Shown piece after piece: positions 14,683 to 38,716 of a stretch of 64,000 nucleotides of DNA (positions are counted from its first letter, which is position 1; each line of letters opens with the position of its first letter). The position numbers and the translations under genes are program-made. Below the pieces are notes generated by a model, which worked only from the letters and a program-made list of their open reading frames with translations, made no database searches and was not told the DNA's origin. The DNA lies in assembly GCA_964187785.1 (NCBI GenBank), contig OZ076409.1, forward strand, positions 14,758,001-14,822,000. Direction: 5' to 3'. The DNA comes from Amphiscolops sp. MND2022. Taxonomy: Eukaryota.

Positions 14683-15670
14683 TGTAACGTCTGCCACCGG
14701 GGGTGAACGGAAATGGGTCGAAAGAAATGGGTCGAATCGCCTCCTGTGCCATGGGTCGAATCTTCACCGTTTCGGAATTGGGTCGAATGGACTTGGGTCG
14801 ACCTTGAAAAATGCCAAGTTCAAAGGAGACAACATATTGATTTCGGACTATTCGACCTCAGTCAATTCGACCTAAGTTATTCGACCAAAAGGGTCGACCT
14901 AATTCTTTTCGAACTATTTCATTCGACCTATTTCATTCAACCCACTTCATGCAATCCTGCCACCGGCATGACCAAAATTTCGATGAAAAATTCGAAATGT
15001 GCGATGTCAAACCAGAAGAAAAAAGATGGCCGACCTAGCAGGAACAAAAAAAGCATGAAAGAAAAAAGAAAATACACGGAGAGCGAGCAAGAAACAGAGC
15101 ACGTGTGAAAGAGTTGCAGAAATGGATGAAAAATTGCCAGAAGATGAAGAAACATCAGCAGAAAGATCATCGGAATGTTGTGCCATCTCCTTGGGAAATC
15201 AACAACATCTGCAGAGCCTTGCCAGAGGCAAAATATGGATGATGGACTGAAAACTGTAAAGTAACTGGGGCTTATCCCCGTTTTCCCTTATTATTTCCAT
15301 ATTTCCCCTTTAGTATTTGGAAGATGTTTGACCTTCTAGGTCTTTTTATATCTTATTTGCCAAATACTATCTTTTCCAGCTGATCACCGTTTTTGACCTC
15401 GGAAGCATGTAGGAACTCGTAGGAACGCACTAGAAACCTTAGGGAACGTTTTTACAGGCTTGTGGGGCGTGTCCGGACTTTGAGAGTGCCGGTGCGTCGC
15501 TTCGGAGCTCTAACTAGAGAAGCCTCCTTAGACGTCAGAAAAGTCCCCGTAGGAGACCATTTTGGTACCAAAAACTAGTGTCTAGGTATGTAGTAAGACA
15601 ACGGTCTCCTGTTTAAGCATCCTAGGCATTGTCCCTCTTCCTAGATGTGCGTCGCTAGCCGGTCGTTACA
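14683..15670 (+). repeat. 5' LTR (contains a 257-bp MITE)
   Basis: Starts TGTAACGTCTGCCACCGG, ends GCCGGTCGTTACA; matches 33214-33944 apart from the insert and scattered substitutions. Confidence 0.95.
14701..14957. mobile_element. Mutator-like MITE (GGTCGAA subterminal repeats) inserted in the 5' LTR
   Basis: 9-bp TSD TGCCACCGG (14692-14700, 14958-14966); absent from the 3' LTR; GG..CC ends; inverted GGTCGAA/TTCGACC arrays. Confidence 0.88.
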
Positions 15671-15686
15671 TCTGGAATAGTTTTTA

Positions 15687-15704
15687 TGGCGACCACAGAG
15701 GGAT
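15687..15704 (+). promoter_or_regulatory. Primer-binding site, tRNA-Arg(TCG)-like
   Basis: TGGCGACCACAGAGGGAT is close to the reverse complement of the metazoan tRNA-Arg(TCG) 3' end; it lies 16 nt after the LTR. Confidence 0.75.
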
Positions 15705-18662
15705 ATTTTTCATTTTGCGTATAAGTAGGAGCAACTTCTGCTTTCCGGCCCCGAAGGGTCCAGATCTAGGAAAACTTATGGGAGAGTCCTAGATTATTCT
15801 TATCGCCTTTTTCTGGCCCTTTGGGCTTTGTACTAATGCTGTCCCTGCGTTTTCCGCATGTTTCCGAGGTCTACTTAGAAAAATTAAAGGTTTCTGACAG
15901 TGTACCCCCTTTAACCTTACTAAAGCCTAATAAAAAAGCTGTTCCGGCCTATCCGGAACGTGTTTTAAGGGGTTTTCTAGCTTGATTTTAGCTAATTTGC
16001 AATGTATGGGGACAGAGAGGACGAATGCTGAAGGCTTCCACCAGCTGTGCTGACGTGACGACGTTTGCAGTACGCCACGTCAAACGGGTGAAATCGTCCA
16101 TTTTCTTATTTTAACGGCCCAAAAAGAATATTCCCAGGCCTATTCCCATTACAACTAACTGAGAAAAATACCCAAAGGGTATTCCGATCAGTTATTAAAA
16201 AATTTGAGCTTGAAAACCTCGAAAATAACGTTATTTATAGCTCAAATACCAAAATTTTCAATTTTGAAAGCCAATATTTCGTCAAAAAGAGTGAGGCCAG
16301 TGGGAATACTAGAAAAACGTTCCAATAGACCCCCTTGGTCAGAAACAAAATTTTTTGTGGGGCCAATTTTCCAAAAACAGTGAGAAATTCAGCGATTTTT
16401 GTTTAAAAATTGTCAAATTTGGCCATTTTGACCCAATTTGTTAAGGGCAAAGCATTGGACATTAGCTTCCAAGCTTCTGAATCAGCCCAAAAACCTTTTC
16501 CCCTAGCTTGGTAGTACGAAACACTATTGCCAAAAAGCTTTTTAAGGCTCCCCAATAGAAATTGAAACTTTAACAACTTTTTTCTCTTGATATACATAGA
16601 CCTGAGTAGAGGACCCCATAGACCTGAGAGATATAACATCAAAAATAATATTTGAACGAACCCCAGCCCCCTAAAATAAGTTGTCATTTTCCATTCAGTA
16701 CTATTGGAACAATCCCGAACGTCCAAGAACCGACAGATAGAAATTTCTTGGTGAAAACACGTTATTTCAGTGTTGTTCCGAGAGTGTAGAAAGTGCAATA
16801 TGAAAATTTTTTGAGAGACCTTTTTTGGAACCTACCAGGTTTCGCTTGCCCATTTTCTGTTAGTATAAAGTATAACGTTACAAACGCAGAAAACCGCGAG
16901 TGATTCCAACCAGTGGTTGTTGAGAAATAGCCGAAAACGCGTTATTTTTGCGACATTTTGGGAACCATGTAGTAGTGCTTCCAGCACTAGTCGAAATCTC
17001 TCCTAATAGAAGCAGCCTCAAACAGATTACACCATCGTGTAGCTCACAAAGAGTTACGTTAGTGGTGTAATTTTTGTAGCGCTAGCATTACTAGTGATTA
17101 AGAAATCTTAGCCGCAGTTTTGCTCAAAAATCGTGTGAAAATGTCGAAAAAAAACTTTAGTTGAGCATAGTGCAATACCTTGCAGGTATCCCAGCACTAA
17201 AATTCTTGCATTTTCTTACGTACTGCACTAAATCCCGACGATTTATGCAATTTGAGCAGCCAGTGGCTAGCCAAAGCTGAAAAATCGACATTTTTGTGAA
17301 TTTTGACCCGTCAATGTGGTACCTCTGGTACATCAAGGTTTTATCACCTCGAATAGCCAAGTATCGCCCCAGGCACCTCGCCGCCGTGTTTTTCCAATAC
17401 CTGGGCACAAGGTACGCTCGCACGCAAAGTTTCAGGTAGCCAGGACGCCTACAAAGCGAGTTTGACCACTTTTTACAAATTACACGACATAGTCAATTTT
17501 TCAAAGAACATTATTAAAGGGCCGCAACACCCACAGGGTAAATTTTGGCACAATCGGCATTCAGTTCCCCACGATTCAATTAATGTAGTATACGGAGTGA
17601 AATTTTCAAGTCACTACGAGCCCGGGAAGTGATTTTCACCCTTCCCAGACGTGCCGATTGACGACAAATCCGCTAGTTTTGCGAAAACTGAACAGAGCAC
17701 GGCACTCTTTCAGTCCCAAACGACCCGTATAAGGACTTGAACATAACCCTTAAACATAAAGAGCACCCCCTACGCTCCCAACAGAGTCGCATTAACCGCC
17801 ATAGCAGTGCTTCCAAAACCAAGAGCCTCCAAAAAGATGCCCAGTTGACCAAAGAAATTGCGCACTTTAGTACCGAATTTGCTAAAAAAAGTGAAACTGT
17901 AGCACCATCAACGCAACAGCCTCAATCAAAGTTACCTTCCAAACTAAACGCCTTCTTCCATACTAGTTACCGAGTCCCGTTCCAATCCCCATCCATCCCA
18001 CCATACCCGAATCCGAAAGTCGGAAAGACTAGGTGAGTGACAAGCTTAGCCAGTCGAAAGAGCGCACTGCGCTTGAAACATCTATCTCGACCATTACCAT
18101 TCAACCCAATCTACCACCCACAGCACTAGCCACAATTCAATAGGCTCCTCCATAGCTTATTCCAAAGTAGATTAGCAAGTAGAACGTAAATAGTCAAAAA
18201 AAAACTTTTTCTGTTTGATAAATCAAAAATCCATTTCCCTCCACTCTGTGCAGACAGAGAACGAAACTTCAGTTAGTATTAATACATAGAATTACACTAG
18301 CCCAATTACCAAAGGTAGTACAAACTTTTTGTTAATCGCGACCCTATGATCTCACCCCAACCACAGCGCGACCACACCCATGTAATCCAGTTAATTTTAA
18401 TTTTGAAAAACTGCAACGAGCACCTGTTATTACCTTCCATCCTCTCTTTCAGGGGGACGAACAAGACAAATAAACCAAAAACACCATTGTTCAAAAATTC
18501 CCCTTTAGTTCACGATCAGAATCCAAACGCCAAAAACTAACCAGAAAGAACTGGAACCCTCCCAAAAGCTTCCATGCTACTGATCCTTTTAGTAACGTAA
18601 TAGAGGACGCAACCCGTTGGGAGACCCTTACCGACAACCCACAGAAACCAACTATTGCAGAT

Positions 18663-21106
18663 ATGTTTTCAGAACTCATGTCTGACTATATTTCCAACAC
18701 GGAACAAAACATGGAGATGACAACCGCAGCCGAACAACTCGGTTCGTCGCAAGCTTCCCCTGATAGTACTGATCCAGTGGATAGTACCGGAAGCACCACG
18801 CGAAACAACGCGTGGCCCCTTCTAGAAGTCACTGACTATAGCCTAGAGGAGTGGTTAAACTCAAATAAAAAACCCCCGTATGAAACAAGTGAAGCCGAAG
18901 AAACGGCATCACAAAACAGCAATCACTCAACTCCTGTAGCGCCCCCCGCACTCCTTCGATAAATAAGAACCCGCTGGATTCCCACGCATTAGACATTAAC
19001 GCGAATCGAAACGATCAAACCCCCTTTCTAAGCGGATACGCACAAAAAGCAGGGCCATCCACGGCACCTACCAAATCAAATGACAACCAACCAACACAAG
19101 TGGAAGACAACCCATTGCGGTACGTCTTTAGGACACCTCCATCAAGAAACCTGGATCTTGTCCCAAGACAAATAGACAAACCAAACTACACACCTAACTC
19201 CAGAGCCAGTGCAGGCACGGCCCCAGACTCGACCGTAACCAAGATCACAAAAGAATCACAAGCCGCGAGAGAAGATTTTCGAAATACCCTGGCCCAATTG
19301 TCACAAGTACATTCACGATTGTCACGAGAAAATACTGAACACGTGATGAGAGCTGATGTCATTATGAGGGACATGGATGAAATGAGGAAAGGCCTGTTAG
19401 AAATACAGGCTGAAGGACGTCAGAGCCAAGGAAGATTGGAAGCATCCATGGCCTCTCTCAATGACTTGATAAAACAAAGAGAAAACATGGCAGACACACG
19501 CATGGCCGAAATGTCCGCAGTGATGAAAGAAAGAGATCATCAAGCACACGAACGGATGAAAATGATGTCAGACCTCATGCAACGCAGAGAGACTGACGCA
19601 AACACCAGAATGATAGATCTGATGACCACGATGAAGGACCTGACATTAGGAGTGAGAGCAATGGCAGCCCAAACTGCAGCGGCTCAGGCAAAAATAACGC
19701 CAGCGGCGCCAATGACCTCTCACTCAGACGAACTGCCTTCCACCAGCACTGCCCCAAACCCAACACAAGCCACCTACCGCAAAATAGACCAGTCCAACGC
19801 CGAGCAAAATGAACCTCTGAAGTTGATACCACCTGCAACATAGAAAAAAGATCAACCACGAACCAACAAGATGATGAGAGTAATCAGAACAGAATCCTGC
19901 GATGTGGGCACGGACCCACTAACCAGTGTCTCATTTGACCCTTTTGCTCGTGGTGCATCAACAACGGGAGATTATTGTTCACCCGCAAGCGGCATGACTA
20001 CAAGAGAATCAAACTATTATACCGCCAAGACCAACATCAGCGAGAAATCCTCCAAGCAAGCATACTTAGATTTGATCCCGCGGCCAGTGGCAACTAGCAC
20101 GCAGCGAAAATCCACGACAAAGAGAAACTTAGAACAAGACAACGACGAGATGGAACAGCTTCCAGAAACGCCAAGCGCAACACCCGACACCCCAAGAACT
20201 AGCCAACGACAAGCATTGGCGGAAGCGATTTCAACCGCATTGTCCAAAGGCTTGGAACCGCTGCTCGCGGTGAAAGAATCGAAGAACAAACCCACGAAAT
20301 ATCGAGGGACCAAGGACGGAAACGCCGACGGATGGATGATGTTGATGAAACGTCACTTAGAGAAGGCACATGCCAGAGCGACTCCCCTCGACAAGGCCTG
20401 GAATATAATAGAGTATCTAGGACACGAGGCCCGAGACTACATCACCAATAAATCCGAGGCGGAAAGAGACACCGACGAAAAAGTCTTTACATTACTGGCA
20501 CGACGATTCGGAACTGGGTCAAGCAAGATCCATATACAGCAACAATTCCGAACACGCAACCAGAACAATGAAGAAGACTACATGCAATATCTCGATGCCC
20601 TCGAGGGTCTACGCAGCCAAGGCTACCCTAACGAGGAGGTGATCGTTCGCAGATACGAAATAATGCAAAAATTCATCGAAGGTGTACGCAACTTCGAACT
20701 AAAAAGAAACCTCGCACTGATGTATGCGCAAGAACAGTACGTTGAAGCACCTCCAACAGTAGAAGCGCTTCGCTTCACTGTTCAAAAATACCTGCGCATG
20801 CGCGGTTCTAATCGTCCAGAGAATTATCAAATGGCTCCGCCTCAACAATCTCAGCCTCCGCAACCGAATCAACAACCGAAATTGCCCCAGACAATTCCAC
20901 CACCTATACAGCAACCCCAACAAGTTCCACCTCCACCACAATTGGCACCCTACCGACAACAACCCCAACGAGCATGCTTTAACTTCGTGATCGATTGCCC
21001 ACTCAAAGACCATGCACGAAAACCAATACAACAACAAGTAAATTCTTGCCACACAAGCCCATCTGGTGGATGGACTTGCCCTTCACAACCACACGGGGGT
21101 GAATAA
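18663..21106 (+). pseudogene. gag: Gag (long low-complexity/coiled-coil N-terminus, capsid domain, damaged Zn knuckle)
   Basis: KPTKYRGTKDGNADGW...RFG...FRTRNQ...YLDALEGL...FIEGV is a Ty3-type capsid pattern. CFN-FVIDCP is a knuckle with a deletion. In-frame TAG at 19841-19843; upstream frameshift. Confidence 0.85.
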
Positions 21107-24100
21107 CGAAGTACACCCAGCATCACTACCTATCCAAGGGACTGTAGCCTTCTGTATCAATTGTGGATGCACTGAGCATTCCGCATCAGAATGTATAGCC
21201 CCAGAATACCCTAGACAAGAAGAACAAATTAGGGCAACATGGTATGCTCCGCATACCAACCAGTTTGATGGCGTACCGCAGGATGATCAAGTTAGAGTAA
21301 TCTCGGTAGCAGAGGCCGGAGGCCCTTCTCGTCCCGTCGTCATTACTTGCGGCGAAAAACAAGTGCTTACCACGCTAGAAGCACCCGCCCCGGACTGCAC
21401 CGAGACACTCATATCTATTCACTTACTCCTCTCGGCTGAACTAAAATCGCGTCCCGAACTGACACTAGCGCAATTAAAGGAAGACCTGTGTAGAAACACC
21501 AAGTATACAATCACCGCTCGACCGTTACCGCACTTCACCCGGGAGGACGAGACCAAATTAGCACCAATCCAAAAAGTGAAGACAATTTCCCCAGTACCAG
21601 TGGCCATTAACGTAGACGGGGTCGACTTGAAATTTGACGCCATCGTAGTAGTAGAAGGTTATTTCCCACAGGGATTATACCTGGGTCGCCAGGAGTTGAG
21701 GTGTTATAACATCGGAGTGCAAGACACTCAAGGGGAAGCTCGCATTGACGAACGAGCATCACTGGTAGTTGCCTTTGGCAGCAACCTCCAGGAACCCATT
21801 CCCTTATATGGTATGATCGACACGGGTTCAGGTGTCTCTATTCTCTCCCTTGCCGCTTACCAAAAGATTGCTTCCGCCCATTCATTGAGCCTCATGCCGT
21901 ATGACGTCCAGCTATACGCAGCAAACGGCAAAACCATAACGACTGTCGACATGGCTGAGAGTGTGAGCTTCCAATTGGGTAGCCACACACTGAAGACCAA
22001 CTTTATTGTCATAGTTGACCACCTAGGAGCTGAAGACTTCCTGTTAGGACGCAACTTCTTACGCACCTATTATGTCCTCGTGGATTTGACCGCAATGAGG
22101 GTCACAATCCGAGACCCAAAAACTCCACGCCATTTCAAACCTGACCATGAGGTTAGTGACCACGAACCTTCGTTGGTAGTGTCCACCGACAAAGTTGTAC
22201 TAGGACCTTTCGAACGTAAGTTGGTTAGAGCACAGGTCATCACACAGGACCCCAACCAATATCGTTTCCGTAATGTAATGATACGCCCCAGCGGGATGTA
22301 CAATCGAAGTTCCTTTATTTCAGAAGACACCCTAACTTCAGTGGGAGACGACGGCACGGTGTACCTAACCATAAGAAACAAAACCGCTACCGAAAACGTG
22401 CAAATACCAAGCAAAATTGTCCTTGGCAAGGCGGAGCCTACCATTTTTATGTTTAGACCGGTTTCGGTCGACCAAGCCGATGGAACCTCCATGCCTCTGA
22501 TAGAACAAGTTAATAATAATAACATTGTTGATCTTGACGACACAAGCAGTGAATTAGGTTCTTTCGCACAAAACTTCCTATCGTCTACTGAGTTGTCGGA
22601 AGAGGAAATGTCGGAAAGTGAAAAACGCGCCCAAACCAACCCCAACCTATTAAAACCAATACCAGGCCCTGACCTACCCTCTGTCCTTTCGTCTTGGGGG
22701 GAGGGAGCGAGAGAACAATTAGCAGAAGTTTTAAACGAGTACGACGACCTCTTTATGAAACATAAGGCCGACATAGGAAAACGTACAATAGCAAAATATC
22801 GTATTGAATTAGAACCACAAGCTATCCCCCACAATGAGGGCGCAAGGCGAATGTCTCCAGACAAGGCTGCCAAAGCCAATCAAGAAGTAAGGAACCTCTT
22901 AGCCTTAGGCTTAATCCAACCCTCCTACTCGCCTTGGGCTGGTGGAATAGTAATGGTAAAGAAAAAGACAGGCGAACTTCGCTTCTGTTGCGACTTCCGA
23001 CCGCTAAACGACGTAACAGTAAAAGACGCATTCCCCCTTCCCAGAATAGATGAAAGTCTGTCCAGAATAGGTAACGCTAAGATCTTCACGAGCATCGACC
23101 TAGCGTGGGCCATTTGGCAAATACCACTGAATAAACGCGATAGAAGGAAAACAGCATTTGCCTGTGAATTGGGTTTGTTTGAATGGCAACGTATGCCCTT
23201 TGGGCTATGCAATGCATCCGCCACCTTCCAACGATCCATCACTAGAGCGCTACAAAAAATCCAACAGAGACACGGGAGTGTCGTCATGGCCTACATTGAC
23301 GACATAGTGATTGCAACCGAAACAATGGAAGACCACATAATGAGAATCAAAGAAGTATTCGAATGTCTCAGAGAGGCAGGCTTCAAAATGCGAGCAGAAA
23401 AGTGCGACTTCATGCGCACGGAAACCAAATATCTGGGACGAATAGTATCAGCCGATGGAATCAAGCCCGACCCAGAAGCAGTGGCTAAAATCCGAGAGTG
23501 GATGCCACCAAGGAACGAAGAAGAACTCCAAAGCTTCCTAGGATTCGCCAACTACTATCGCGATTTCGTCCCATTCCACGCCGCCAAGGTGCAACCCATG
23601 CAGGAATTGCTAAAGAAGAATCAACACTTCAGTTGAGAAGAAAGGCACCCAGAAGCCTTCGACTCGGTGAAACAAGCCCTATCCGACGCTACCACTCTAG
23701 CTGCACCGAATGAACAAGGACGGTTCGTGCTAGATACTGACGCCAGCACGGTAGCGATCGCAGGTATTCTACATCAAGAACAAGAATACAATGGCAAAAC
23801 CATCCTGAGACCAATAGTATACGGCAGTAAATCACTGACCAAGACCCAACTGAACTATGGTGCCCCCAAGCTGGAAATGTATGCAGTGTTTTACTTCGTG
23901 GAGAAATTCCACTCATACCTAGCAGGTAGAGAGTTTACGCTTCGCGTAGACAACCAAGCCCTGTCATGGCTCAAAACTTACTCCATGGACCAAGCCATGA
24001 TTGGCCGTTGGATCGCACGTCTAGACCAATATCATTTCAAAACGATCCACAGACCGCGTACGCAACACCGAAATGTCGATGGACTCAGCAAGCGCACCAA

Positions 24101-25891
24101 CGACTATTTTAATCTCGAACAAATCCTTAAAAAGCCACCAGAGGTAAGCGAAGGATTCAATTTCATGTCACAAAAAGACTACGACGAACTCCCCACAGTT
24201 CCATACTTCGACAAACGTGGTCATCTAATTCCAGACCACCCAAAACTCCCTCCAGAAGCTCGAGCTCAACTACCCCTGTTATACATTCTTCAGAAGAAAC
24301 GAAAGAGCAAACAGCCCGAAGAGCCAACCAGGATTACCCCCTGGTATCCCGAAACTCAATGGGAAACCACACCGACTCTTGAAGAAAACGAACGACCTAA
24401 CCGAATTTTGAGCATAACCACAAGAGTGCCTCCGGCACGAATAGACACCACTAAACCCGATCCAACTCTAAGGTCACTCCCTGTCGAATGTCAAAAACAA
24501 GCAGACGTTTTGAGAACCATCGATGCAGAACTGCACGAACACCACCTAACCAAATATGGCCTCCGAGACCTACACATGGCTCAGAATAGAGACGTACATC
24601 TCTTGGCACTGAAGAAACTCATGAAGAACGAGCCCTTAGAAGGTCCAATGTTCCCAGATTAAATACAAGACTTCGCCAAGAGGTATTACCATCAAAAAAA
24701 GGATCTACTTATCTTAAACCCTGACGACATACTCTGCGTCAATTACGTTCCTCAACAACGTGCTCTCCACGTACGCCTTTGCATGATAATCATGCCGCAA
24801 CTTTTCCAACACGAAATCTTGTATCGAGCGCACGATGAATCGGGACATCAAGGCGTGGGAAAAGTGCTGGCCAGGATACAAGAACGACACACTTGGCCAG
24901 GAATCAAAAGGGACGTAGTAAACCACATCAAACAATGCTTAACTTGTCAACAAGCAAAGCACCCAGCAAAAAATCCTTGCTACCTGCAAAGCATCAATAG
25001 TAGCAATTTCAACGACCTGGTTCAATTTGATCATTTAAAGCTCTGCAAAACAGACTCTGGCAACACCGGCCTTTTGGTAATAATAGATCATTTTACCAAA
25101 TTTGCGGAAGCAGTCCCATGCGCTCACGACGAATATGACGCGCAAACCACGCCAAAATCTATCCGAAATAAATGGTTTGCCAGGCATGGCACTCCTGCTA
25201 GGATGCAATCAGACAATGCGACAAACTTCACCGCTGAGGTCGCCCAGGAACTTATGAAAGCCTCTCAAGTCACCAAAGTTACGTCTACCCCAGCACACCC
25301 CAGAGGAAATGGACTCGTGGAGCGACAGAATAAAACTTTACTCACTTTGCTCCGAGTCTACACATCGCGCAGAATGCAAGACTGGGATGAATACATTGAT
25401 GGAGTCCTAGGCGCATATAATTCCACCCGAAACGCCACTACAGGGTTTTCACCCTACATGCTCCATCATGGCGCAGAAAAATCCATCCCACTATCATTTA
25501 TATACCCAGAGTTCGCAGCGCGAGGCTTTGATTCCCAAGAAGAGTTCGTGGAAAACCTATTGGCCAGACAACGAGAAATCCATGAATTGGTTCGAAGAAA
25601 CACTCATCAAGCTCAGCTTCGGCAAAAGCTAAAATTCGACCGCCACGTAAAAGCAAAAGCGCATGCCGTCGGCGACGCTGTCTGGGTTTTTTGTCACAAA
25701 TCCCCAAAGGTGGTACTCGCAAGCTTATACGCGCTTGGCGCGGACCCCACAAAGTCACCGATGTACTACAAGATGGACGTCTCTACGTACTCGACACAGG
25801 TCAAAAAGTTCACTACGAGAGACTAAAGAAACACGTACCAGCCCCTGGGACTGGACTACTTACCAACCTTTTGGACCGGATCAAAATATAG
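21066..25891 (+). pseudogene. pol: Pol: CCHC knuckle, protease, RT, RNase H, integrase
   Basis: CINCGCTEHSASEC; IDTGS (D at 21819); RMPFGLCNA and YIDD (23292); DTDAS..E..DN; HDESGH..CLTC, QFDH..SDN..VER; WRGPH. Stops at 23634 and 24660; frameshift near 25700. Confidence 0.97.
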
Positions 25892-28163
25892 CTATCATCG
25901 CTGATCCATACGTGGAAGACACTAACGAAGAATTTACTTCCGATATCTCTAGAGACTCCTTCCTACCTGAACAACTCTCTGAGGCATCGTTCGAATTGGA
26001 ACCCACAAGACCGGTCCCTCCTCGTACCATCCAGACACGTACTCAAACTGCCCTAGAACAAGGGGTCCCGCGCAGGAGATTCAGCCAATTCGGATACCCA
26101 TCCGAATCAGACTCTGAGGCCGAAGCGCCCGGACCTCCTCCCATGACCTCTCCCTCCCAGGTAGTATTCCCCGAAATCGACGATCTAGAACCACTATTTT
26201 CTGATCAGGAGGAAATACTACCACCAACTCTCACCGAAAGCTTGGTACCATCGCCCTCTGGAACTTCAGCTCCATTACTATCTAACCCCTCACTCACAGA
26301 TACCTTAAGCAACTTCCCCCTATTTAACTAACAAACAAAGAATCCCAACAAACAGACTGATCCAATCCAAACCACTGAACCTAAAGAACATAATGTCGGA
26401 CCCGACAACCAGATCACGAGTCAAAACCCACCACCCACAACTACCAACATTAGAGGTCGACCTCGAGGCAGACCCCCCGGTCTCAGAAACCAACTACCCA
26501 AGTCATCAAGCGGAACTACTACGTCTTCCTGGAGACCAACCACACGGAAGAAAAGAGGCCCAAGAACCCAATTTTCCTCCAGAACCGCACCCAGGACACT
26601 TGACAGAGCCATGACTCTCCCTCAGATTCCTGAGAGTTCAACTCCTACTCAATCAAACCAACTAGATGATACTTCCAGACAAGCACCACGCTATCAACTC
26701 CGAGCCAACAGAACGCCAAAATATAGATGCGGAACCTGTGGTTCCCGTGACTGTAGTTGCATCCAGCTAGTCACAACGGAACCCCCGAATCAGCGACTGG
26801 CCCTGGGAGCGATGATTCCGGCTTGCGAACTCATCTTAGCACAAACAGCAAACCATCCACAACACGAAATCTTGAATATACGAGTAAAGCTACAAAAACC
26901 CAAAACCCCGCCAACCATCCGACACATCACCTTAACATTTGAGAAGACTTTTACAAGCACCGAATCTGAATCAATACCACCTCTAGAATCCACTTTGAAA
27001 GAAATGCATAAATTCTCCCCTTCTAATTGCCCAACGTATCGCTTCAAAGAATGGACAACTCATGAAAAGATGGACTTGAATTCACATTAGCCGCAACCAT
27101 TCCCCCTTTACCACCCTCATTCTTATTCGGTGAGCTAGACGATACCTGCAACAACCTCCAAATGATTCGGTGCATCACCGACAACCAACTATGGAAGAAA
27201 TATCACATCACTTCCCCTCCGGGTGACGTATATCAACCATCCACAGGATGGTGGTTCCTAGTCACTTCCCTCGACGACTCCTCATTGGTCTCACCGACTA
27301 CATTATTACTATGCCTAGAGAATCTACGCACCCTTGTAGAGACAAGCGACACCCTATGTTTTCATCTCGCCGACATTTACCGCGGAAAATTCTTGAGCCA
27401 ACACTGGTTGCAACTGATAGTCATTATCTTTTGCAGACAAACGAAGATTTGCATTTTCGACCGATTAACATACACACCCAAAACTCCAATATCTCCATTA
27501 GAAGCACTTTCCGTAATGCACAGCTGGTCGTGCATACACATGGGTAACCGCCCCCTGCAACGTACAATATGGGAAGATCGCAAAGCATTTTTTGGACACT
27601 TGATGTCGAACCCCTTAGAGAATCATGCAGCAGAAACTGGAAAATGGCTCATATCACAACCGAAAATTCGTCCAAGCCACGTGCCATGGATTACTTACTC
27701 TGACACGGATATTCTACAAGCCTCTGGCACACTAGTATTGTGTTGTCCCGCAAACCTCTAATTCCAATCGGCGACTATTCGATATATCATTCGCGAAGAT
27801 GGACAAGAAACCATCTTCCGTTTAAAACCTTCGGTTGGCATGACCATTTGCTTGCAATATTCCCACACGGCACCCTGGAACAATCAAATTTTCCTCTTGT
27901 GCACCAGAGCCTCCAACAAGCACCCACTCCTGCACGAAACCCTACATACATGCCTCAACCACCTCCGACACCAACTCCATCAACACGGAATTTCCCAAAT
28001 TCATATACCCATCTATGATCCCGAACGATCGATCAATCTCCTACCAACTTGGTACGCCACACTCCGGGACCATTTTTTCGGGTTGAATCTAGAAATAATA
28101 CTCCACGATAGAGTCTACGTTTCAATCGCATCAATTTCTCCTACTGACATCACTGCTGATTGA
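25860..28163 (+). pseudogene. Integrase C-terminal extension ending in two TARG1/OARD1-like macrodomains
   Basis: P/S/E-rich linker and CGTCGSRDCSC motif, then WWFLVTS..TLLLCLENLR..HWLQLIVIIF and DILQASGTLVLCCPANL..IFLLCTR..ETLHTCLNHLRHQLHQHGISQIHIP..WYATLRDHF, both paralleling the OARD1 pattern. Stops at 26329 and 27759; frameshift ~27070. Confidence 0.72.
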
Positions 28164-28504
28164 ATCCTCATAACTGCAGGGCCAGAGGCCAGCCCTCCTT
28201 ATTCTTCTGAAAAACCATCCCACTTTCCTTATTGACTTTCTCGATACGTGCGAACTAGTCCGTAGGATTTTTAATGACTGCACTCTATTAAGCTACAAGT
28301 CTTCCTAACACTTACTCGGTTTTTTAAGTTTTAACCATTTGTATTCCCTTCTTAACTTTTTTGATATACCCTATGAAACTCCTCTCTACTCATGTGCAAC
28401 TTGCTTTTCAGTTTTATCCTATTGCTTCGCCCTTGCGCAGCTTTCCTAACTTGCACCATCACTCACTTTCATCGATATCACCCTATTCCCTATCAGTGCT
28501 ATCA

Positions 28505-31500
28505 ATGGACTCTTCATCACGCAACCGCATGCCTGCACCCAGCAGCCAACAGAATCCCCAACCTCGTATGCCTCCTGCTAACACTCTTCCACCAGTGGGC
28601 GAGGTTATTGGTCGAATCGAACAACTAGCCTTAGTCCAACAAGCTTTACAAGATGGAGCCACCCCCACCATGATCGCTGGCTTTGCCATGATCGTAACAC
28701 AGATGCAAGCTCAAGCTGTGCACCCAGAAGTCCTGTTAACCATCACGAGTAGCATCGGGCCGCTTGAGCGTTCCGCTACCTTCCGCGATGGCGTTTGGCA
28801 TGGTTATGACTTAACTCATAATCTTATTGACCCTCGCTCCCACATGCTCTATGGAGAAACTGAAAGGCCTCCAATGGATCAGGAACGATCATTCAGAATC
28901 TCTCCCCCAACGATTCAACCTTTGTTCCAAGCACCACAGCCAACCCCCCCCCACAAACCATGATTCAGCTTCCACCCACCAAAACTACAACCTTCAGCTG
29001 CATCCTACCCTTAATGCCACCTCCAATTCCCACACCACCTATGCCTCTGGCATCCGTAAGTGTCAGCTCGCTCACTCCATCTACTTCTGGCTTTATGCTT
29101 CCTTCCACCTTTCAGGGGAGAGGGGTGCAAGTAAGCCCCATCGAATGCAACCAAGTAACAACACAAGAACAAGCCAAAGAAACTCGCCCGACAAGAAAGG
29201 TCACGTTCCAAGATGCATATGAAGAACTAATTCCCTCCACCTCCAACACCCAACCTGCCCGAAACGAACCCAGCAGACTGATAGGATTCCAAAAGGATCC
29301 AAAACTGCATGAACGGCAAAGAGAAGAACAGCGAGAGGAAAGAAAGGCCAACAATGCTCCAATAGACCTTCGCGACAAGTTGAACGCAACCAAGAGGGCC
29401 AGAGAACAAGACGGGCAATCTAGCTCAAGATCAAACAAAGGAATTCAATCCCCATCCCCTAGCCAACCAGAGACCAGGAGGCAAAAGGTCGCAAGAGAGC
29501 TACTGACTGCGGCAGAAATGAAGCAGCTGGATATAACGGCAAAGGACGCAGTGCGTCTTCAACGCGAAGTACCAAATATGCCTGATGAAGAAAATCCTCC
29601 AAGTCAGAAGTTTGCGAGCGCTAATAGCAAAGGTGACCAAACCACTCAGCGAATCATAGAGAAGGCAAACATTGGAGTAGTTTACAACAGACCAGTTAAG
29701 CCACCGATATTCACCAATGATGGAGGAGTCCCGCCATGGCTCGAGCGTCTTAGGAGAGAGTTGCAGAACAGTAACTCAACGTACCTACAACCGCTCCAAG
29801 CAACCAACGAGCGACTAGCTCGCCAGAGACCCGGCAGATTCGGAGAAAGTCATCTACAATCAAAAAACTATGCAAGGAACCCCATCACCCTGCTGCCAAT
29901 GGGAAAAGACCTATTGCAAAAAACCAGAATTGCTCTCTTCGTAGACTCGACCATCAAATCATCGTACAATTCTAACAATAATCTGATGGATTATAGACTA
30001 ATGAACATGCCCTGCACCGCACTCAATGAAATGGCTGAGGTAACCGACAAAATGCTCACACCAGCGGCGGCAGAAACAAAACCTCTTCCACCAATCCTGG
30101 TATACTCGAACGTAATCGACCACCTCGCCCTGCGAGGATCAATGCGACACTTCGATACGCTGAGCACTCGATTCACTGAAGGATTTGTCACCGACGAAGT
30201 CACCGCGTACGTAGAAACATTGTCCCATATTGCCACATTGATGAAAAATAAGAAACCAAACACAGGAACAGTCTTCGTGTCACCCCCTGGATACATCTAT
30301 CTCCCGAGAGCGTTGCAACAATTCTTGTACTTGGTGCTGGAAGCATCCTATGCAAGAGACTTGCATTTCTACATCGTTGCTCCGAACTTAAGGATCAACG
30401 TAACCACGTGGCGCCCCTGTGAAGCATCATACCCCGCATTCTTGGCTGATATATCCAAGGCTATCCAAGGATTTACGGGATATGAAGGCAACTCACAGCT
30501 TATTGTTGACGAAGCCACCGCATACGACTACGGAATGCAAATGTCCATCAGATCCCTAGATGAAAACGGTGTGCGCAAAGTATTTGACCCAAACGAAGGT
30601 GAGAGAAAACACCTGATAGATAACCTCTGGTTTGAAAGGAGGGACGAATCCACCCTCGATGAAAAGACTCACGATCCGAAATTCCATAAAGAGCTCCTAG
30701 CTCTTTTCAAGGAAACAGAGATGATCAAAGCAGAACGGACCAACACTACTGTGTTCCCCATTGCAGCCATAGCAACAGATGCCAAACTCGACATGGCGTC
30801 CCTCACCTTGACACTCTTGATGGTAATGACACGAGGCTTGGCAAGACAGAACGAAGCAGAACCAAATCACACTTACCAAACTTGGCACAAAGCCTTACGT
30901 GAAACTCTAAATCAGGTCGCCCTGCGGCTGGAAATCCCATTCCCTGTATTCCTCTACAATATCTCCCCCTTTTGGCTCCCAAGTTTCGTCCAAGCTCAAT
31001 TCAACCTCGATGACCAACAAATACGCCTATACGTGGAGGCAATGCGAAAAGCCACCATAAGCGAAATATTGGCTTATTTAATGGCGGTGGGCATGCACGC
31101 AGTCTACAAAGGACCCTCAGGCATTCTGCAGAAGCTGATCTTCGACAAAGGACACTTACCGCTCTTCAGCTACCTGGTGTATGCTCAAAATCAGAAGAAC
31201 TGGCTGCAAGCAATCTTAGGTGCCTTGGACCCAGCGGGTCCCCAACGATTGAAGAAACAACTAGAACTGAACATTGAAGCCATTCTCACGTGGATCTACT
31301 CAACTTGGGTAAATGTCGCGGTTCTTATGCATCTTCTGGATGAAAACCCGGCCATCAATAGAGAACCTAACCTTTTCCCTGGCTTCTTTTTTCCCTCACA
31401 AATGGCCACTCTCATGTTGGTGTGTTGGTGGAAACAGAGGATTTAATACCTCTAATCGCTCCCATCGTCTGGTCAATTTTTGGCGCGGTCATGGCACTGA

Positions 31501-32664
31501 GATACCCGACCCAAGTCTTGCGTGTGGCAGCGAATACTCCCACTTTTTCCATACTACACTTTGTAACGACAGATGGAACCCAACCGGAGCCCACCTACCG
31601 CGGAGTAATAGCCAACTTCAATTCTTTACAACCGCCTATGGCCTACACAATCATCAAAGACAAAAAGCAGGCAGAACACAAATTCACATCTATCATAAGA
31701 GCACGTGCGCGATGCGCCCTCCCGATGCCAATGGAATTCCATCCAATCGCATGGCTACATATCCCTCTGAACCCAGCAACAGGAGCAGCGCATTCCCTTG
31801 CAGACTGGAACACAGAAGTGATCTTGAGGATCTTAACCACTGTAATTCAGAGATTGGGCGGCAGAAGGCGAGGCGAAAAACCAAGTGGGTTACGATATCC
31901 TTATGTATGTGACATTTCAAGGATGTACTGTGATCGAACCAATCCCCGCGCACACCCATCCCATATACTAGAAGCAACGACATGCTGGTCAAAACCAGAC
32001 TTGGTGGATTTTGCAGTTCACCAGACGTCTCAGCGCATGAAGGCAAAGACGCCCTCAGTGGCAAAAGAACCAAATAGAAAAGCCTTACCAATCAGTACAG
32101 ATGTCCCAAACAATCCGCGCGCCGCGCTGGAAATTTTCTTAAATCTGCACAACAAACAAAGGGAACGAGGATGTTTCTGTTGGCGAAGACTATGCACGCG
32201 GAATTCAGAATTTCAAAAATTTGTTCGTACAGTATGGCCACCCAGAATTGGCCGACAAACTGCCCGACTTCCCACAGGGAAATACCACCGAACAAAATAG
32301 TGTAACAAATACGGCTGCCCCTGACAGCTCACAGCAAACAATACCCAGTGGGTTGCCCTCGGAAGGAACTGAGACTTGAATGGAGGAAGACCAGGAGAAT
32401 CTATCCATTGCCACAGAAACCCATGATGAACCCATTACAGACGATAATTTCACTCTGTCCGATGGCACAACCCCTACCCAAGATGAACCAGAGACGGGAA
32501 TATCGCAAATCGACGCTGCTGATATTGAATCAGAGTTGAAAAACTTACTCACCATCGACGACTCAATCCAATATCCTCCCTTGGTGGCGGAATTGTCAAC
32601 AAATCAGCAGTCAACAGTAACATCATCCGTTTCGGACTCACAACAGAGCCAAAATGATGAGTAA
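28505..32664 (+). pseudogene. Accessory ORF3 (~1380 codons if repaired) with SGNH-hydrolase-like domain at ~29925-30475
   Basis: Abutting ORFs 28361/28960/31422/32380 are joined by frameshifts (poly-C ~28945, TGTTGGTG duplication ~31415). SGNH-like blocks IALFVDS, PPILVYSNVIDHL, KPNTGTVFVSPP and WRPCEASY. Confidence 0.7.
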
Positions 32665-33213: not shown

Positions 33214-33944
33214 TGTAACGTCTGCCACCGGCATGACCAAAATTTCGATGAAAAATTCAAAATGTGCGATGTCAAAACAGAAGAAAAAAGATTGCCGACC
33301 TAGCAAATACAAAAAAAGGATGAAAGAAAAAAGAAAATACGCGGAGAGCGAGCAAGAAACAGAGCACGTGTGAAAAAATTGCAGAAGAAGATGAAGAATT
33401 GCCAGAAGATGAAGAAACATCAGCAGAAAGATTATCGGAATGTTGTGCCATCTCCTTGGGAAATCAACAACATCTGCAGAGCCTTGCCAGAGGCAAAATA
33501 TGGATGATGAACTGAAAACTGTAAAGTAACTGGGGCTTATCCCCGTTTTCCCTTATTATTTCCATATTTCCCCTTTAGTATTTGGAAGATGTTTGACCTT
33601 CTAGGTCTTTTTATATCTTATTTGCCAAATACTATCTTTTCCAGCTGATCACCGTTTTTGACCTCGGAAGCATGTAGGAACTCGTAGGAACGCACTAGAA
33701 ACCTTAGGGAACGTTTTTACAGGCTTGTGGGGCGTGTCCGGACTTTGAGAGTGCCGGCGCGTCGCTTCGGAACTCTAACTAGACAAGCCTCCGAACTCTA
33801 ACTAGACGTCAGAAGGGTCCCCCTAGGAGACCATTTTGGGACCAAAAACTAGTGTCTAGGTATGTAGTAAGACAACGGTCTCCTGTTTAAGCATCCTAGG
33901 CATTGTCCCTCTTCCTAGATGTGCGTCGCTAGCCGGTCGTTACA
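33214..33944 (+). repeat. 3' LTR (731 bp)
   Basis: TGTAACG...CGTTACA, direct repeat of the 5' LTR. Confidence 0.97.
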
Positions 33945-34183
33945 CAATCTTATCGGTTCTGAGCAAACTCTTTGAGCGGGTAGTTTTCGAGCGACAATTA
34001 AATTCATGCAAGTGAACAATCTTTTCTATTGTAAATTCGGATCAAAAATAAGTACACTGAATGCACTAAGGGGCATATTGGAAACGATCCGAAATGATAC
34101 CCAACTTGATGTATCCTGTATGCTATTGAATCTGTAAAAACGGCGTTGTTAGTGATATGTCGAATGATTGGCGAGGTTAAATA

Positions 34184-34257
34184 AGCCATTTGGTCCAAGA
34201 GTTAAGGCGCTTGACTACTATCAAGATCCGTCTTGCGATGCAGGTTCTGTCATGGCT
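34184..34257 (+). pseudogene. tRNA-Ser-like pseudogene / SINE head (copies at ~35277, ~39768, ~40861)
   Basis: AGCCAT..ATGGCT acceptor-like stem, GTTAAGGCG D-arm end, CTTGA/TCAAG anticodon stem, long variable arm, GCAGGTTC with deleted T-loop remainder. Confidence 0.6.
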
Positions 34258-34266
34258 ACTTTCACA

Positions 34267-34767
34267 GGTTACCAGTCACTTGGTTTAATACCATTTGGCT
34301 CATTTTTTTTCTTGAGTCACTTGGCTCAAAAATTTTAACCCAAGTGACCACAAAATTAGGCCAACTCCATTCCAACTCACGGAATAAATAAATCAACTCG
34401 CAAAGATAATCTCCAACTACGATCGCTTCGCGATCTCCGTTCCCTCTGGGTCTTTGCTCCTGTTCGACCTCACTTAGCAAGATGGGAATATAAGCGGCCC
34501 CAAGGGGCCGCAGGGCACTAGAGGAAATGGGGAAATATCCGAGGGGTACTTGATATGACAGGTTATAATAGTACGTTGACTACGTTATAATGATAAATTC
34601 GACAAAATCTGCCACGTGTTTTCAACTAAGTGGTTTTAAGTCAAATCACTTCAAGCCAAGTGACCAAAACCCGAGACACTTAGCTTGAAAAAATTAAGCC
34701 AAGTGACTAATGTCATTGAGCCAAGTGACTTTAAGCCAAACGGTATTAAGCAAAGTGACCATTTGTC
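34267..34767. mobile_element. MITE with GTCACTTGG/CCAAGTGAC subterminal arrays (4 copies through duplication)
   Basis: TSD CTTTCACA (34259-34266, 34768-34775); imperfect TIR GTCACTTGGTTTAATACC / GGTATTAAGCAAAGTGAC. Confidence 0.8.
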
Positions 34768-36011
34768 CTTTCACACAATCATGCCGAGTTTGAGTTGTTA
34801 TTAATCTAAGAATAACTCTTGAAATGAAACATGAAATCTTTGATAAAATTGAAGAGTTATGGTGTGAGAGGTATTTGTTTGGAATGGTTGCAGTGGTGTC
34901 TCAATGATCGTATCTAATGGGTGAGCGGAAATAGGTCGAAGGAACGGGATCGAAAATCAGAAATAGTTCTCGAGTCGACATACCAAATTTTTGAATGGGA
35001 TCGAAACAACTCGGATCGAAATTTTGATTTTTGGGGAACAAATCGAATTGCCGCAGATAGAATTTTCTAGAAGGGGACCGCAACTAAGGTCTAAAGAATA
35101 AGATCTAAGGAAATTTCGTAACTTAGATCTAAAGAACTAAGATCTAGAAAGCATGCACCGTAACTAAGGTCTAAATTGAAATAGAATAACGTCTAAGGAA
35201 TAACAATCCTGTATGCTATTGAATCTGTAAAAACGGCGTTGTTAGTGATATGTCGAATGATTGGCGAGGTTAAATAAGCCATTTGGTCCAAGAGTTAAGG
35301 CGCTTGACTACTATCAAGATCCGTCTTGCGATGCAGGTTCTGTCATGGCTACTTTCACAGGTTACCAGTCACTTGGTTTAATACCATTTGGCTCATTTTT
35401 TTTCTTGAGTCACTTGGCTTAAAAATTTTAACCCAAGTGACCACAAAATTAGGCCAACTCCATTCCAACTCACGGAAAAAATAAGTCAACTCGCAAAGTT
35501 AATCTCCAGCTACGATCGCTTCGCGATCTCCGTTCCCTCTGGGTCTTTGCTCCTGTTCGACCTCACTTAGCAAGATGGGAATATAAGCGGCCCCAAGGGG
35601 CCGCAGGGCACTAGAGGAAATGGGGAAATATCCGAGGGGTACTTGATATGACAGGTTATAATAGTACGCTGACTACGTTATAATGATAAATTCGACAAAA
35701 TCTGCCACGTGTTTTCAACTAAGTGGTTTTAAGTCAAATCACTTCAAGCCAAGTGACCAAAACCCGAGACACTTAGCTTGAAAAAATTAAGCCAAGTGAC
35801 TAATGTCATTGAGCCAAGTGACTTTAAGCCAAACGGTATTAAGCAAAGTGACCATTTGTCCTTTCACACAATCATGCCGAGTTTGAGTTGTTATTAATCT
35901 AAGAATAACTCTTGAAATGAATCATGAAATCTTTGATAAAATTGAAGGGTTTTGGTGTGAGAGGTATTTGTTTGGAATGGTTGCAGTGGTGTCTCAATGA
36001 TCGTATCCAAT

Positions 36012-37061
36012 GGGTGAGCGGAAATAGGTCGAAGGAACGGGATCGAAAATCAGAAATAGTTCTCGGGTCGACATACCAAATTTTTGAATGGGATCGAAAC
36101 AACTCGGATCGAAATTTTGATTTTTGGGGAACAAATCGAATTGCCGCAGATAGAATTTTCTAGAAGGGGACCGCAACTAAGGTCTAAAGAATAAGATCTA
36201 AGGAAATTTCGTAACTAAGATCTAAAGAACTAAGATCTAGAAAGCATGCACCGTAACTAAGGTCTAAATTGAAATAGAATAACGTCTAAGGAATAATGTG
36301 GGGTCATATACGGTGTATGCACGCTCGCCCTCACCGTCGCAAAGACCAGCTCCCACTATGATCGCTTCGCGATCTCCGTTCCCGCTAGGTCTTTGCTCCT
36401 GTTCGACCTCGCTTAGCAAGATGGGAACATAAGCGGCCCCCAAGGGGCCGCAGGGCACTAGAGGAAATGGGGACATATCTGAGGCACGTTTATTTTTTAA
36501 AGCATTTTATACTTTACCCGTAACATTTAAAAAATGGGAATAACGGAAATTAAAACGGGAATAACGTCTGAAATTTAGACTTTCGGTACTATTCGGGAGC
36601 TGGCATTCTCTAGATCTTAGTTACGAAAAATGACATTTAGATCTTAGTTCTTTAGATCTGAGTTACAGAAGTGCGTTTCGATCTTATTCCTTAGATCGTA
36701 GTTTGTGCCCACTTTCTAGAAAAGTATAAAACGTGTCTCGAATATGTCCCCATTTCCTCTAGCGCCCCGCGGCCCCTCGGGGCCGCGTATGTTCCCACCT
36801 TGCCAAGCCAGGTCGAACAGGACCAAAGACCTAGCGGGAACAGAGATCGCGAAGCGTTCGTAATGTGAGCTGGTCTTTGCGACGGTGAGGGCGAGCGTGC
36901 ATACACAGCATATGCCAACATTATGATAGTCAATTGACTTGAGGCAAACAAAGAACGTTTTCGTCCAGAAGGCTTCGATCAAACTCGACCGCATTCCATT
37001 CGATCCCTACAATTCGATCAAAAGGTTCGACCAAAAAAATTCGACCTATTTACAGCCACCC
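36012..37061. mobile_element. Mutator-like MITE, same GGTCGAA family as 14701-14957 (duplicate 41596-42645)
   Basis: 9-bp TSD GTATCCAAT; TIR GGGTGAGCGGAAATAGGTCGAA / TTCGACCTATTTACAGCCACCC. Confidence 0.9.
36166..36712. mobile_element. Nested Mutator-like MITE with ACTAAGATCT arrays (duplicate 41750-42296)
   Basis: 9-bp TSD TTTCTAGAA (36157-36165, 36713-36721); imperfect 22-bp TIR. Confidence 0.85.
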
Positions 37062-37092
37062 GTATCCAATGCGTTGCCCTTAATCATCAGTG

Positions 37093-38716
37093 TAGGGGAT
37101 TCGAATTATTTGGGTTTCCTGAAATTTGGTATTGGGTCTGACCCATTTAATTGGTATTGGGTAATTGGGGTCGCATCAGGTAATTGGGGTCAAAATTGGG
37201 CTTCGAAAGCGAAAGTTGAGTGGAGCACAGAATCAAAATGAAGCGTCTAACTTACGAAAAATAGCTTGTATACACAGTTTTTGAACGTGAATCTCACAGA
37301 ATCAAAGCAAAAGTGTAATGCGATTATCTTTCTGCATTAATTGATGACCCAGCTGTCTTTTTGATCTGAAAACAATTTGAGACAGAAAATTAAATTCGTG
37401 TCATTTGAGCAACTGAGAATTTTTATTTATAAAAACATTTATGTTCCTATTATAAGGAGACATTCGATTTTGTAAATAATTTTTCGCTACTCTGCCATAG
37501 GTCATTTGATTCAATGTAGTCGTAAAATCGACCGTGTTCATGCAATAAACCAGTAACAATCTCGTTTTTATCCAGCCATTTGTTGTAAACCGACTTGATA
37601 GCAGAACTCATTTGCGGGTTGTTCGAGGACAGTAACTTTAAGTAACGAATGACATTAACTGCAGTTTCAGCATTTGCACTCTCTTTCTTTAAATCCAGAG
37701 TCAAGTCTTCAAGTGGCTGTAAGCATTCAACAATCGGCATTTAATATATCTACATCCGTAAGACTCAAATCGAATAAACCCAAGCGACTGTTTAGATAAC
37801 CAATTATCTCCTGAGCTCCACAAAAACCCTCGTAATTTATAAGCCCCAAACAATACTTCTTCGAGCGAAAATTTATGTAAGCGCCAATGAACTTTACATT
37901 GCCAGAAGCCTTCCATTTATCGAAACTCAATGGAATGAAGTCCGACGACTTTCGCGCTGCGAACGTTGATTCAATTTTTGAAACAATTTCGTGGTAACTT
38001 AGCTTCAATTGCAACAGAATCAAATGATATTCTCCCGAAGCGCATTCGCTTAAAAAATAACTGCATTGTCTCAGATCGAACAACTGCGGATATAGGAAAG
38101 TAGTCCTGGCAAACCAATCGCGCAACTTCGTTGCAACCAATGACTTTCGAAGATCGATACGAAATTGACGGTCTGGTTGCTATCTGCCTGGAAGTCGCGC
38201 TTTTTCCAGGAATTCCATTGGGTATTCATACTTCTGGTTCCATAGTTCATATTCCTTACTACGGTACCACATTTGATACAATTCCGGAAATTGGTTTTAC
38301 GGTCGTTATCAAATTGAACATGAAACTTGTTGTAAATGTCTGTTTTGGATTTAATTAATCTCCATTCTTCGTTCTTTTGCTTTTTTGGCGGAGCGACTTC
38401 AACGCATATTTCGGCAGCTTCATCTGTTTCGCTCCCACTATTATTCTCAATATCGGATTGATCCATTAATATCTTGAAGCAAAACAAAATAGTGTATTTG
38501 ACCGAAGCTTTCGAAGGTAAAACAATTCTTCAACGAACTCTGAAAATTGGGTCACCCAATTATTTGGGAGCCAATCAAGTGGGTAATTGGGTTTTTCTCG
38601 AAATCATTGGGTTGGGAAAGTGGGTGTCTTCGGATATTTGGGTTGGGTAATTGGGTTGGGTACCCATTTAATTGTGTTGGGTGTTTGATTATTTGGGTTC
38701 ACTAAATGGGAAACCG
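37093..38716 (-). mobile_element. Internally deleted hAT transposon with transposase remnant (duplicate 42677-44305)
   Basis: BED-finger-like IYNKF..CIKC..GTRSM and LSFDKWKA..FIGAYINF (first catalytic D region). TTGGG subterminal repeats; imperfect 8-bp TSD CATCAGTG/GATCAGTA; TIRs degenerate. Confidence 0.75.

Follow-up and report, generated by a model that had tools for sequence, protein, structure and literature searches.

The window examined here is a 64,000-nucleotide stretch of DNA from Amphiscolops sp. MND2022 (assembly GCA_964187785.1, contig OZ076409.1, positions 14,758,001 to 14,822,000 of the forward strand), and it contains a decayed copy of a Ty3/Gypsy long terminal repeat (LTR) retrotransposon of 19,262 bp. 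The gag-pol polyprotein of this element ends, downstream of integrase, in two tandem domains of TARG1/DarG-type macro fold: a shortened pseudo-macrodomain, D1 (27108..27464), and a full-length one, D2 (27672..28124, with a stop at 27759 in this copy). Coordinates are window positions throughout, and all annotated features lie on the forward strand. Across relatives the two domains are fused in frame to integrase, and the residues that form the catalytic pair and the pyrophosphate loop of TARG1 have been replaced in both. A first-pass annotation, made from the letters alone, had placed two tandem macrodomains at ~27100-27470 and 27690-28120, close to the boundaries found here; it had also proposed that they read or erase ADP-ribose, a proposal that fares poorly against the family-wide comparison below.

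Fold and homology of the two domains

Searched alone, the window stretch 27066-28163 has no Pfam match and no significant sequence match in the PDB, but with its stop read as X it retrieves 221 relatives at an expect value (E) of ≤0.001, 150 of them listed. AlphaFold models were made from natural relatives (P0012 and a stretch of P0003; relatives are denoted by P numbers), and the D1 and D2 coordinates above were obtained by mapping their structural matches onto the window by alignment. The P0012 model is 39% identical to the window stretch, was built on a 111-sequence alignment and has a mean predicted local distance difference test score (pLDDT) of 81. Its D2 (model residues 170-316) matches TARG1 in Foldseek with E 1.8e-7 and a target template modelling (TM) score of 0.80, and among 48,161 representative chains TARG1 reaches a VIA Z score of 15.1 (root-mean-square deviation (rmsd) 2.8, 139 aligned residues), tied with DarG at 14.9, as against 9.5 for MacroD2 and 7.9 for bacterial PARG. 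The P0003-stretch model, 87% identical to the window over D1, places D1 (residues 145-263) on TARG1 with Z 10.9, rmsd 3.2, 118 aligned residues and E 4.4e-5. For both domains the lists of structural matches are filled by macrodomains and the macro-like aminopeptidase N-domain. Structure prediction against macrodomain families, the check that the first-pass annotation had put forward, thus recovers the macro fold when run on relatives; in these models TARG1 is the best match for both domains, and D2 lies closer to TARG1/DarG than to MacroD or PARG.

Sequence profiles give a fainter version of the same picture. A profile of 46 D2 sequences searched against the PDB has OARD1/TARG1 entries as the top five of its seven matches (E 0.017-0.022, ungapped over 75 columns), and a D1 profile finds chance matches only. 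Compared with each other, the trimmed D1 and D2 profiles align with an hhalign probability of 82%, E 1.1e-5 and a score of 37; the highest score among 30 column shuffles was 18.7. The Pfam Macro family matches none of 111 relatives (0/111), and degenerate macrodomain cargo of this kind is therefore missed by routine annotation. A search of PHROGs with the 46 D2 sequences gave one weak ‘phosphatase’ match (1/46), and a structure search of BFVD returned viral macrodomains at 7-17% identity, with no named retroelement among the 50 matches listed. Between D1 and D2 lies a connector (27465..27671) modelled as two helices and a low-confidence loop, 47-52% identical between subfamilies.

In-frame fusion to integrase

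The integrase of the element (24795..25856) comprises an HHCC zinc domain, a D-D-E core and a C-terminal module, recognised by Pfam (PF17921, PF00665), by motif positions and by continuity in relatives; the C-terminal module we presume to be GPY/F-like, a label with no Pfam result behind it. Altogether 439 proteins were collected, 143 of which have the whole integrase core. In 77 of these 143 an open frame runs from the core through D1 and D2, and 46 of the 77 are proteins of at least 2,900 amino acids (aa); the remaining 66 either stop short of this or come from different lineages. Integrase core through D2 lies within one open reading frame (ORF) in 5 of 64 long proteins found by their post-integrase linker and in 17 of 47 cluster members, and P0252 is a single 3,178-aa ORF from gag to D2. 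A search with reverse transcriptase (RT) gave many polyproteins of ~3,000 aa and was the source of the distant relatives, whereas a D2-profile search of longer proteins gave 14 proteins, none of them additional. The integrase-macrodomain fusion suggested by the first-pass annotation is real. A conserved stop parting the domains from integrase, the alternative to such a fusion, is ruled out by the 77 open frames.

In the copy at hand the pol frame is broken by stops at 23634, 24660, 26329 and 27759 and by frame changes near 21090, 25700, 25845 and 27070. The earlier reading had joined the domains to pol by repairing two stops and two frameshifts; the two stops (26329, 27759) stand, but the stretch from the integrase core to the D2 terminus holds three frame changes (25700, 25845, 27070) rather than two. 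The natural end of the gag-pol frame is at 28161..28163, as in the close relatives P0216-P0219 and P0224. No Pfam chromodomain was found in the integrase tails of the 8 + 13 relatives scanned; the folded part of the tail is the macrodomain.

Replacement of the ADP-ribose pocket

In TARG1, Asp20 contacts adenine, a GxG loop holds the pyrophosphate, and Thr83, Lys84 and Asp125 serve catalysis, giving the active-site pattern TKx(30,35)Px[IL]GxGxD (PMC6397177); the catalytic role of Lys84/Lys80 has been confirmed (PMC9967889). We transferred these positions to our domains through a direct alignment of the D2 profile with OARD1 and through a bridge via the canonical relative P0372, so that the register is one of alignment and not of residue-level superposition. 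The P0372 macrodomain aligns to OARD1 over its full length (E 1.3e-26) and nearly without gaps to the D2 series, and the direct alignment gives the same register over residues 75-149. Site frequencies were counted over 119 representatives that share less than 80% identity (223 of 259 proteins aligned), each denominator being the sequences that cover the site.

The TARG1 pattern occurs in none of 261 proteins, nor in the three forward frames of the window over the macrodomain stretch. In the window's D2, Asp20 (27708) and Thr83 are kept, Gly41 has become Gln, Gly43 Ala, Lys84 Arg (27906), Gly121 Asp, Gly123 Glu and Asp125 Ser, and Asp-Pro-Glu-Arg-Ser stands in place of the GxGxD loop (28017-28031); the first-pass annotation had read the LITK lysine and the GCGLD loop as LCTR and IYDPE, correctly in both cases. 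In the window's D1 the Lys84 site is Ser (27267), Gly121 is Asp (27372) and Gly123 is Tyr (27378). These substitutions might be taken for decay of this one copy, an explanation that is ruled out because the same replacements recur across the 119 representatives. At the Lys84 site D2 carries Arg in 43 of 50 sequences and Lys in 2; its Gly121 is replaced by Asp (37/40), Gly123 by Glu (32/40, with Gly in 2) and Leu124 by Arg (36/40), and the Asp125 site holds Pro (15), Ser (14) or Gly (4) among 39 sequences, with no Asp among the residues listed. The corresponding D1 sites are Ala (24) or Ser (16) of 47 at Lys84, Asp at Gly121 (43/52), Tyr (34) or Phe (10) of 52 at Gly123 and Gly at Asp125 (41/51), and the adenine-site Asp is lost (10 Glu, 9 Pro and 6 Lys of 35) together with part of loop 1. 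The pyrophosphate loop has been replaced by D-x-E-R in D2 and by D-x-Y/F-R in D1.

With the Lys84/Asp125 pair and the loop glycines replaced, D1 and D2 likely neither bind nor cleave ADP-ribose, and on the strength of these alignments canonical binding or hydrolysis is very probably absent from both. That the domains read or erase ADP-ribose, and so steer integration to poly(ADP-ribosyl)ated chromatin or counter host PARPs, is accordingly an improbable account in our estimation: it has on its side the TARG1/DarG fold, the adenine-site Asp of D2, a full catalytic signature at the same position in distant relatives (see below) and the existence of PARP-family restriction of retroelements by the host (ZAP, PMC4441479), and it must contend with the absence of the signature from all 261 proteins, with Asp at Gly121 and Glu or Tyr at Gly123, and with the finding that G123E and G43E each abolish ADP-ribose binding and catalysis in TARG1 while RNA binding is kept (PMC5928194). 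The Glu of D2 is thus the equivalent of a binding-dead mutation.

Several observations weigh against so clean a loss. D2 keeps the adenine-site Asp20 in 40 of 52 sequences and Thr83 in 40 of 50; the single-domain proteins P0413 and P0414 retain Lys84 next to a remodelled loop; the macrodomain of SCO6735 hydrolyses with Gln at the Lys84 site (PMC9967889); and part of the D2 pocket may still take a ligand. A rewired pocket, in which D2 accepts the adenosine or AMP end of some molecule, a nucleotide messenger or a modified peptide, would accommodate the retained adenine-site Asp and Thr83, as well as the retention of the Pro118 equivalent in D2 and the distribution of conservation, with the loop Asp and Arg conserved at 95% against a column median of 52% and the Arg at the Lys84 site being the one position of the D2 alignment to reach 90%. 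A buried salt-bridge network would produce the same pattern, however, and D1 retains the D-x-x-R loop despite having lost the adenine Asp and part of loop 1, and we consider a rewired pocket unlikely.

Conservation and charge

Between the subfamilies of P0156 and of P0184/P0189 the integrase core is 94% identical, D1 72% and D2 62-64%, as against 39-51% for the two flanking linkers, and lineages with RT-ribonuclease H (RNase H) regions only 57-59% identical still carry the remodelled loop. From these protein comparisons we conclude with high confidence that D1 and D2 are maintained by selection, and since they are conserved well above the linkers they are likely to be non-enzymatic binding modules. 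Against this, the case for selection is made at the level of protein identity; none of the 4 viral-contig and 138 metagenome-contig candidates for DNA of the relatives was confirmed. The opposite view, in which D1 and D2 are functionless, neutral leftovers from the capture of a host gene, could appeal to the broken state of this copy and to the lost enzyme signature, and it is scarcely credible in the face of open frames in 77 relatives, conservation above the linkers and the recurrence of identical replacements in deep lineages.

D1 and D2 are neutral to acidic, with isoelectric points (pI) of 5.4-8.0 as against 8.9 for a canonical relative; the comparison is one of whole-domain charge. Charge of this kind makes protein partners a better fit than nucleic acid and disfavours a role like that of the macrodomains of the SARS-unique domain (SUD). 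Tandem macrodomains that bind G-quadruplexes and not ADP-ribose are known from that system (PMC2674928), and TARG1-G123E retains its RNA binding (PMC5928194), so there are precedents for a D1-D2 pair that binds RNA or DNA for packaging or target capture; both precedents use basic patches, however, and with balanced or acidic domains here such binding is quite improbable.

Distant relatives and the origin of the domains

We scanned 120 proteins from the RT search with the D1 and D2 profiles. P0320 and P0321, whose integrase is ~69% identical, have both domains. P0338 (integrase 49% identical) combines a D2 whose loop reads D-W-D-R with a probable D1, which scores 18.3 bits on a profile of retroelement macrodomains against at most 3.9 in 100 shuffles; searched by sequence against the PDB, this putative D1 gave no OARD1 match and only designed pentatricopeptide (PPR) repeats. 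A single domain with D-P-N-R is present in P0361, P0413 and P0414. In P0366, P0369 and P0372 (integrase 38% identical), a long acidic tail leads into a single macrodomain at the end of pol. This domain matches the full TARG1 pattern, which was found in 3 of the 120 RT-search proteins and in 24 of 71 with 21 further members of the same three clusters. Their Pfam Macro matches have E 6e-5 to 1e-3, of which P0366 alone passes the cut-off, and all three carry Tyr at the adenine-binding Asp20 and hence are not textbook TARG1. From their residues, the families of P0366, P0369 and P0372 are predicted to be better candidates for an active eraser than D1 and D2.

In a 30-row tree of RT-RNase H, all seven rows with degenerate domains fall inside one clade of 23 rows (support 98/95), the other 16 rows of which end early or are rearranged. 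Compared with OARD1, the canonical domains contain an insertion of 7 residues following the third strand; in the D2 series this segment is shorter by about two residues. The insertion and the shared position together suggest a single capture of a macrodomain at the integrase C-terminus. A tree of the macrodomains themselves unites all six D1 rows with a Shimodaira-Hasegawa-like approximate likelihood ratio test (SH-aLRT) support of 90, but on long branches and without cellular TARG1 sequences; it is weak and we do not rely on it. The canonical trio lies outside the 23-row clade, at the unresolved base of the RT tree, so that a single capture is unproven. The single-domain lineage (P0361, P0364) is without the AT-hook-like and cysteine motifs described in the next section, which counts against the reading preferred there.

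On the history we propose, D1 and D2 would trace back to a functional eraser of TARG1 type that was captured in this place and survives in distant Gypsy families; within the clade, remodelling of the loop and duplication of the domain would have followed. A bolder version, in which a Gypsy lineage took up a TARG1/DarG eraser to strip host ADP-ribose marks off its own proteins or cDNA and a daughter clade closed the pocket, duplicated the domain and made of it a chromatin tether that selects integration sites, we hold to be doubtful; were it true, ADP-ribosylation would be a host defence against LTR retrotransposons. Whatever the origin, three families with a TARG1-type enzyme predicted to be active and a large related clade with a conserved tandem pseudo-enzyme form a natural series. 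With it one can ask whether ADP-ribosylation serves hosts as a defence against LTR retrotransposons, and it bears on how an anti-defence enzyme turns into a binding module.

The integrase tail and a possible docking role

The tail past the integrase module measures 774-791 residues in most relatives and 732 in P0321. It opens with an acidic part rich in Pro, Ser and Thr (25857..26900, with the stop at 26329 in this copy), by its composition probably disordered, the first half of which is 73% identical between subfamilies and the second half 39-43%. Motif searches of the relatives locate within it tandem Arg-Gly-Arg-Pro cores (26452..26475), present in 74 of the 75 relatives that span the linker and doubled in 64, which we take to be AT-hook-like, though this is not a Pfam result. 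They are followed by an RYxLR-type motif and a four-cysteine cluster, CxxC-x4-CxC (26689..26760), found in 67 and 70 of the 75 relatives respectively; the cluster is a probable zinc site, zinc binding being suggested by the cysteines. Immediately before D1, the model packs a small conserved strand-helix-strand unit, D0 (26900..27107, pLDDT ~60-90, with the frame change near 27070 in this copy). D0 has no fold match of its own, although it was never searched on its own. A likeness of D0 to P0338 had been noticed by eye, and the profile gave it no support.

Our preferred reading, held tentatively and somewhat short of an even chance, is that D1-D2 is a protein-docking module on the integrase tail in which the ADP-ribose pocket has been replaced, and that it tethers the integration complex. 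The newly conserved Asp, Glu/Tyr and Arg residues would probably close the ADP-ribose cleft. D1 and D2 would stay on integrase after protease processing and, together with the AT-hook-like and cysteine motifs on the flexible linker, would tether the complex to a putative host chromatin protein; to this step we give the same guarded credence.

A challenge to a docking role is that the ~775-residue tail could be cleaved off by the element's protease, by which the link to integration would be lost. The pseudo-macrodomains would then form a separate accessory protein, either an anti-defence decoy or adaptor or a structural part of the particle. The long low-complexity linker between integrase and D1, the further accessory ORFs of the element and the habit of giant Gypsy elements of packing accessory domains into one polyprotein (Burro, PMC6431247) all speak for such an arrangement. 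Set against them are the good conservation of the first 158 residues past the integrase C-terminal module (73%) and the presence of DNA-binding-type motifs on the same tail, with no cleavage site identified, and we judge a cleaved accessory protein to be rather unlikely. Both D1 and D2 are small enough to be tested singly.

Relation to known systems

Human TARG1 (OARD1/C6orf130; PDB 4J5S, 2LGR) and DarG (5M3I, 5M3E) have the same compact fold, and D2 shares with them Asp20, Thr83 and Pro118. D1 and D2 differ in lacking the Lys84/Asp125 pair and the GxG loop, in their low identity (10-16% in the structural matches), in being in tandem and fused to a retrotransposon polyprotein and, for D1, in being ~25 residues shorter. 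A parallel in circumstance is the SUD-N/SUD-M pair of SARS coronavirus nsp3, which is likewise in tandem within the polyprotein of a mobile element, has abandoned ADP-ribose binding and has a canonical macrodomain as its presumed source (PMC2674928). Its fold match to our domains is weaker (Z 6.7-7.0, against 10.9-15.1 for TARG1), and it belongs to an RNA virus and binds G-quadruplexes through surface lysines (PMC2674928), whereas D1 and D2 belong to a retrotransposon and are not basic.

Macrodomains have been met in LTR retroelements before. Teleost epsilon-like endogenous retroviruses possess macro domains (Basta et al. 2009, as reported in PMC4977317), but encode them in additional ORFs; by description, the present case is set apart by being Ty3/Gypsy, in frame behind integrase, duplicated and degenerate. 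The planarian Burro/GYPSM1 elements are, as here, giant Gypsy elements with a very long gag-pol ORF containing captured domains and with accessory ORFs; compared by description, the cargo listed for Burro comprises AIR1, Smc, MATH, BIR, ankyrin, BCL2 and env, and the words ‘macro’ and ‘ADP’ are absent from the text of the review (PMC6431247). The accessible portions of PMC7729036 and PMC11377751 make no mention of retrotransposon macrodomains. Within the openly available literature, which is to say outside subscription journals, Repbase and supplements, we found no account of a Gypsy integrase that ends in pseudo-macrodomains in tandem or in an enzyme of TARG1 type, and it is apparently this arrangement, and not the presence of macrodomains in LTR retroelements, that is undescribed. 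Some Gypsy polyproteins of arthropods bear Poa1p-like macrodomain annotations.

The C-terminal extension of Gypsy integrases is thought to encode target-site choice, and to our knowledge few such target-choice modules are known. Chromovirus integrases carry a host-derived C-terminal chromodomain whose job is tethering to chromatin. The first-pass annotation had likened the position of the macrodomains to this one; both are extra C-terminal domains of integrase, but here the fold is another, the tail is much longer and targeting is putative. On the bolder version of the history given above, D1-D2 would be to this Gypsy clade what the chromodomain is to chromoviruses, and enzyme and pseudo-enzyme stages would both be extant.

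The element and its surroundings

The element is bounded by a 5' LTR (14683..15670), with TG...CA ends and a 266-bp insertion at ~14691-14956, and a 3' LTR (33214..33944) preceded by a purine-rich tract. The pair is 96.7% identical, with 698 of 722 aligned positions the same and 24 mismatches. The 266-bp insert has a ~10-bp direct repeat on its flanks and short internal repeats, and is possibly a small non-autonomous DNA transposon. A target-site duplication of 4-6 bp is absent at the flanks of the element (14675-14682 / 33945-33950), where only three bases agree, which marks it as an old or recombined copy. Assignment to Ty3/Gypsy (Metaviridae) follows from the TG...CA LTR ends and from the Pfam order protease, RT, RNase H, integrase; Ty3 Gag-Pol is what the relative P0372 matches best in the PDB.

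A candidate primer-binding-site TGG lies 16 bases past the 5' LTR and another TGG 2 bases past it (15671-15705). The ~2.8 kb that separate the 5' LTR from the first gag homology (15700-18470) are unusually long. The gag part of the gag-pol frame (18570..21097), broken here, aligns to residues 16-838 of P0252 and has a weak PNMA match, and it is followed by protease, RT and RNase H (21087..24032; PF13975, PF00078, PF17917/PF17919), a region that contains the stop at 23634. Between protease and RT, 22150-22480 has a beta-rich look and by eye resembles the dUTPase-like region that some Gypsy lineages carry in degenerate form.

Downstream of pol, further large ORFs occupy 28328..32300 in the ORF list: 211 aa (28328-28963), 860 aa (28864-31446) and 309 aa (31371-32300), the last of which may continue the 860-aa ORF in another frame. 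None of the three has a significant Pfam match. The 860-aa ORF holds an SGNH-hydrolase-like segment (Atlas features 0.81-0.84), which we note as a lead only, and the relative P0341 has, after a rearranged integrase, a GDSL-lipase Pfam match just below the cut-off. Outside the element, at 34100-45100 and 8400-12300, the window contains a duplicated block of ~5.6 kb with nested 1,093-bp repeats and with inverted arms that enclose transposase-like fragments, as well as a ~1,578-bp unit repeated three times in tandem.

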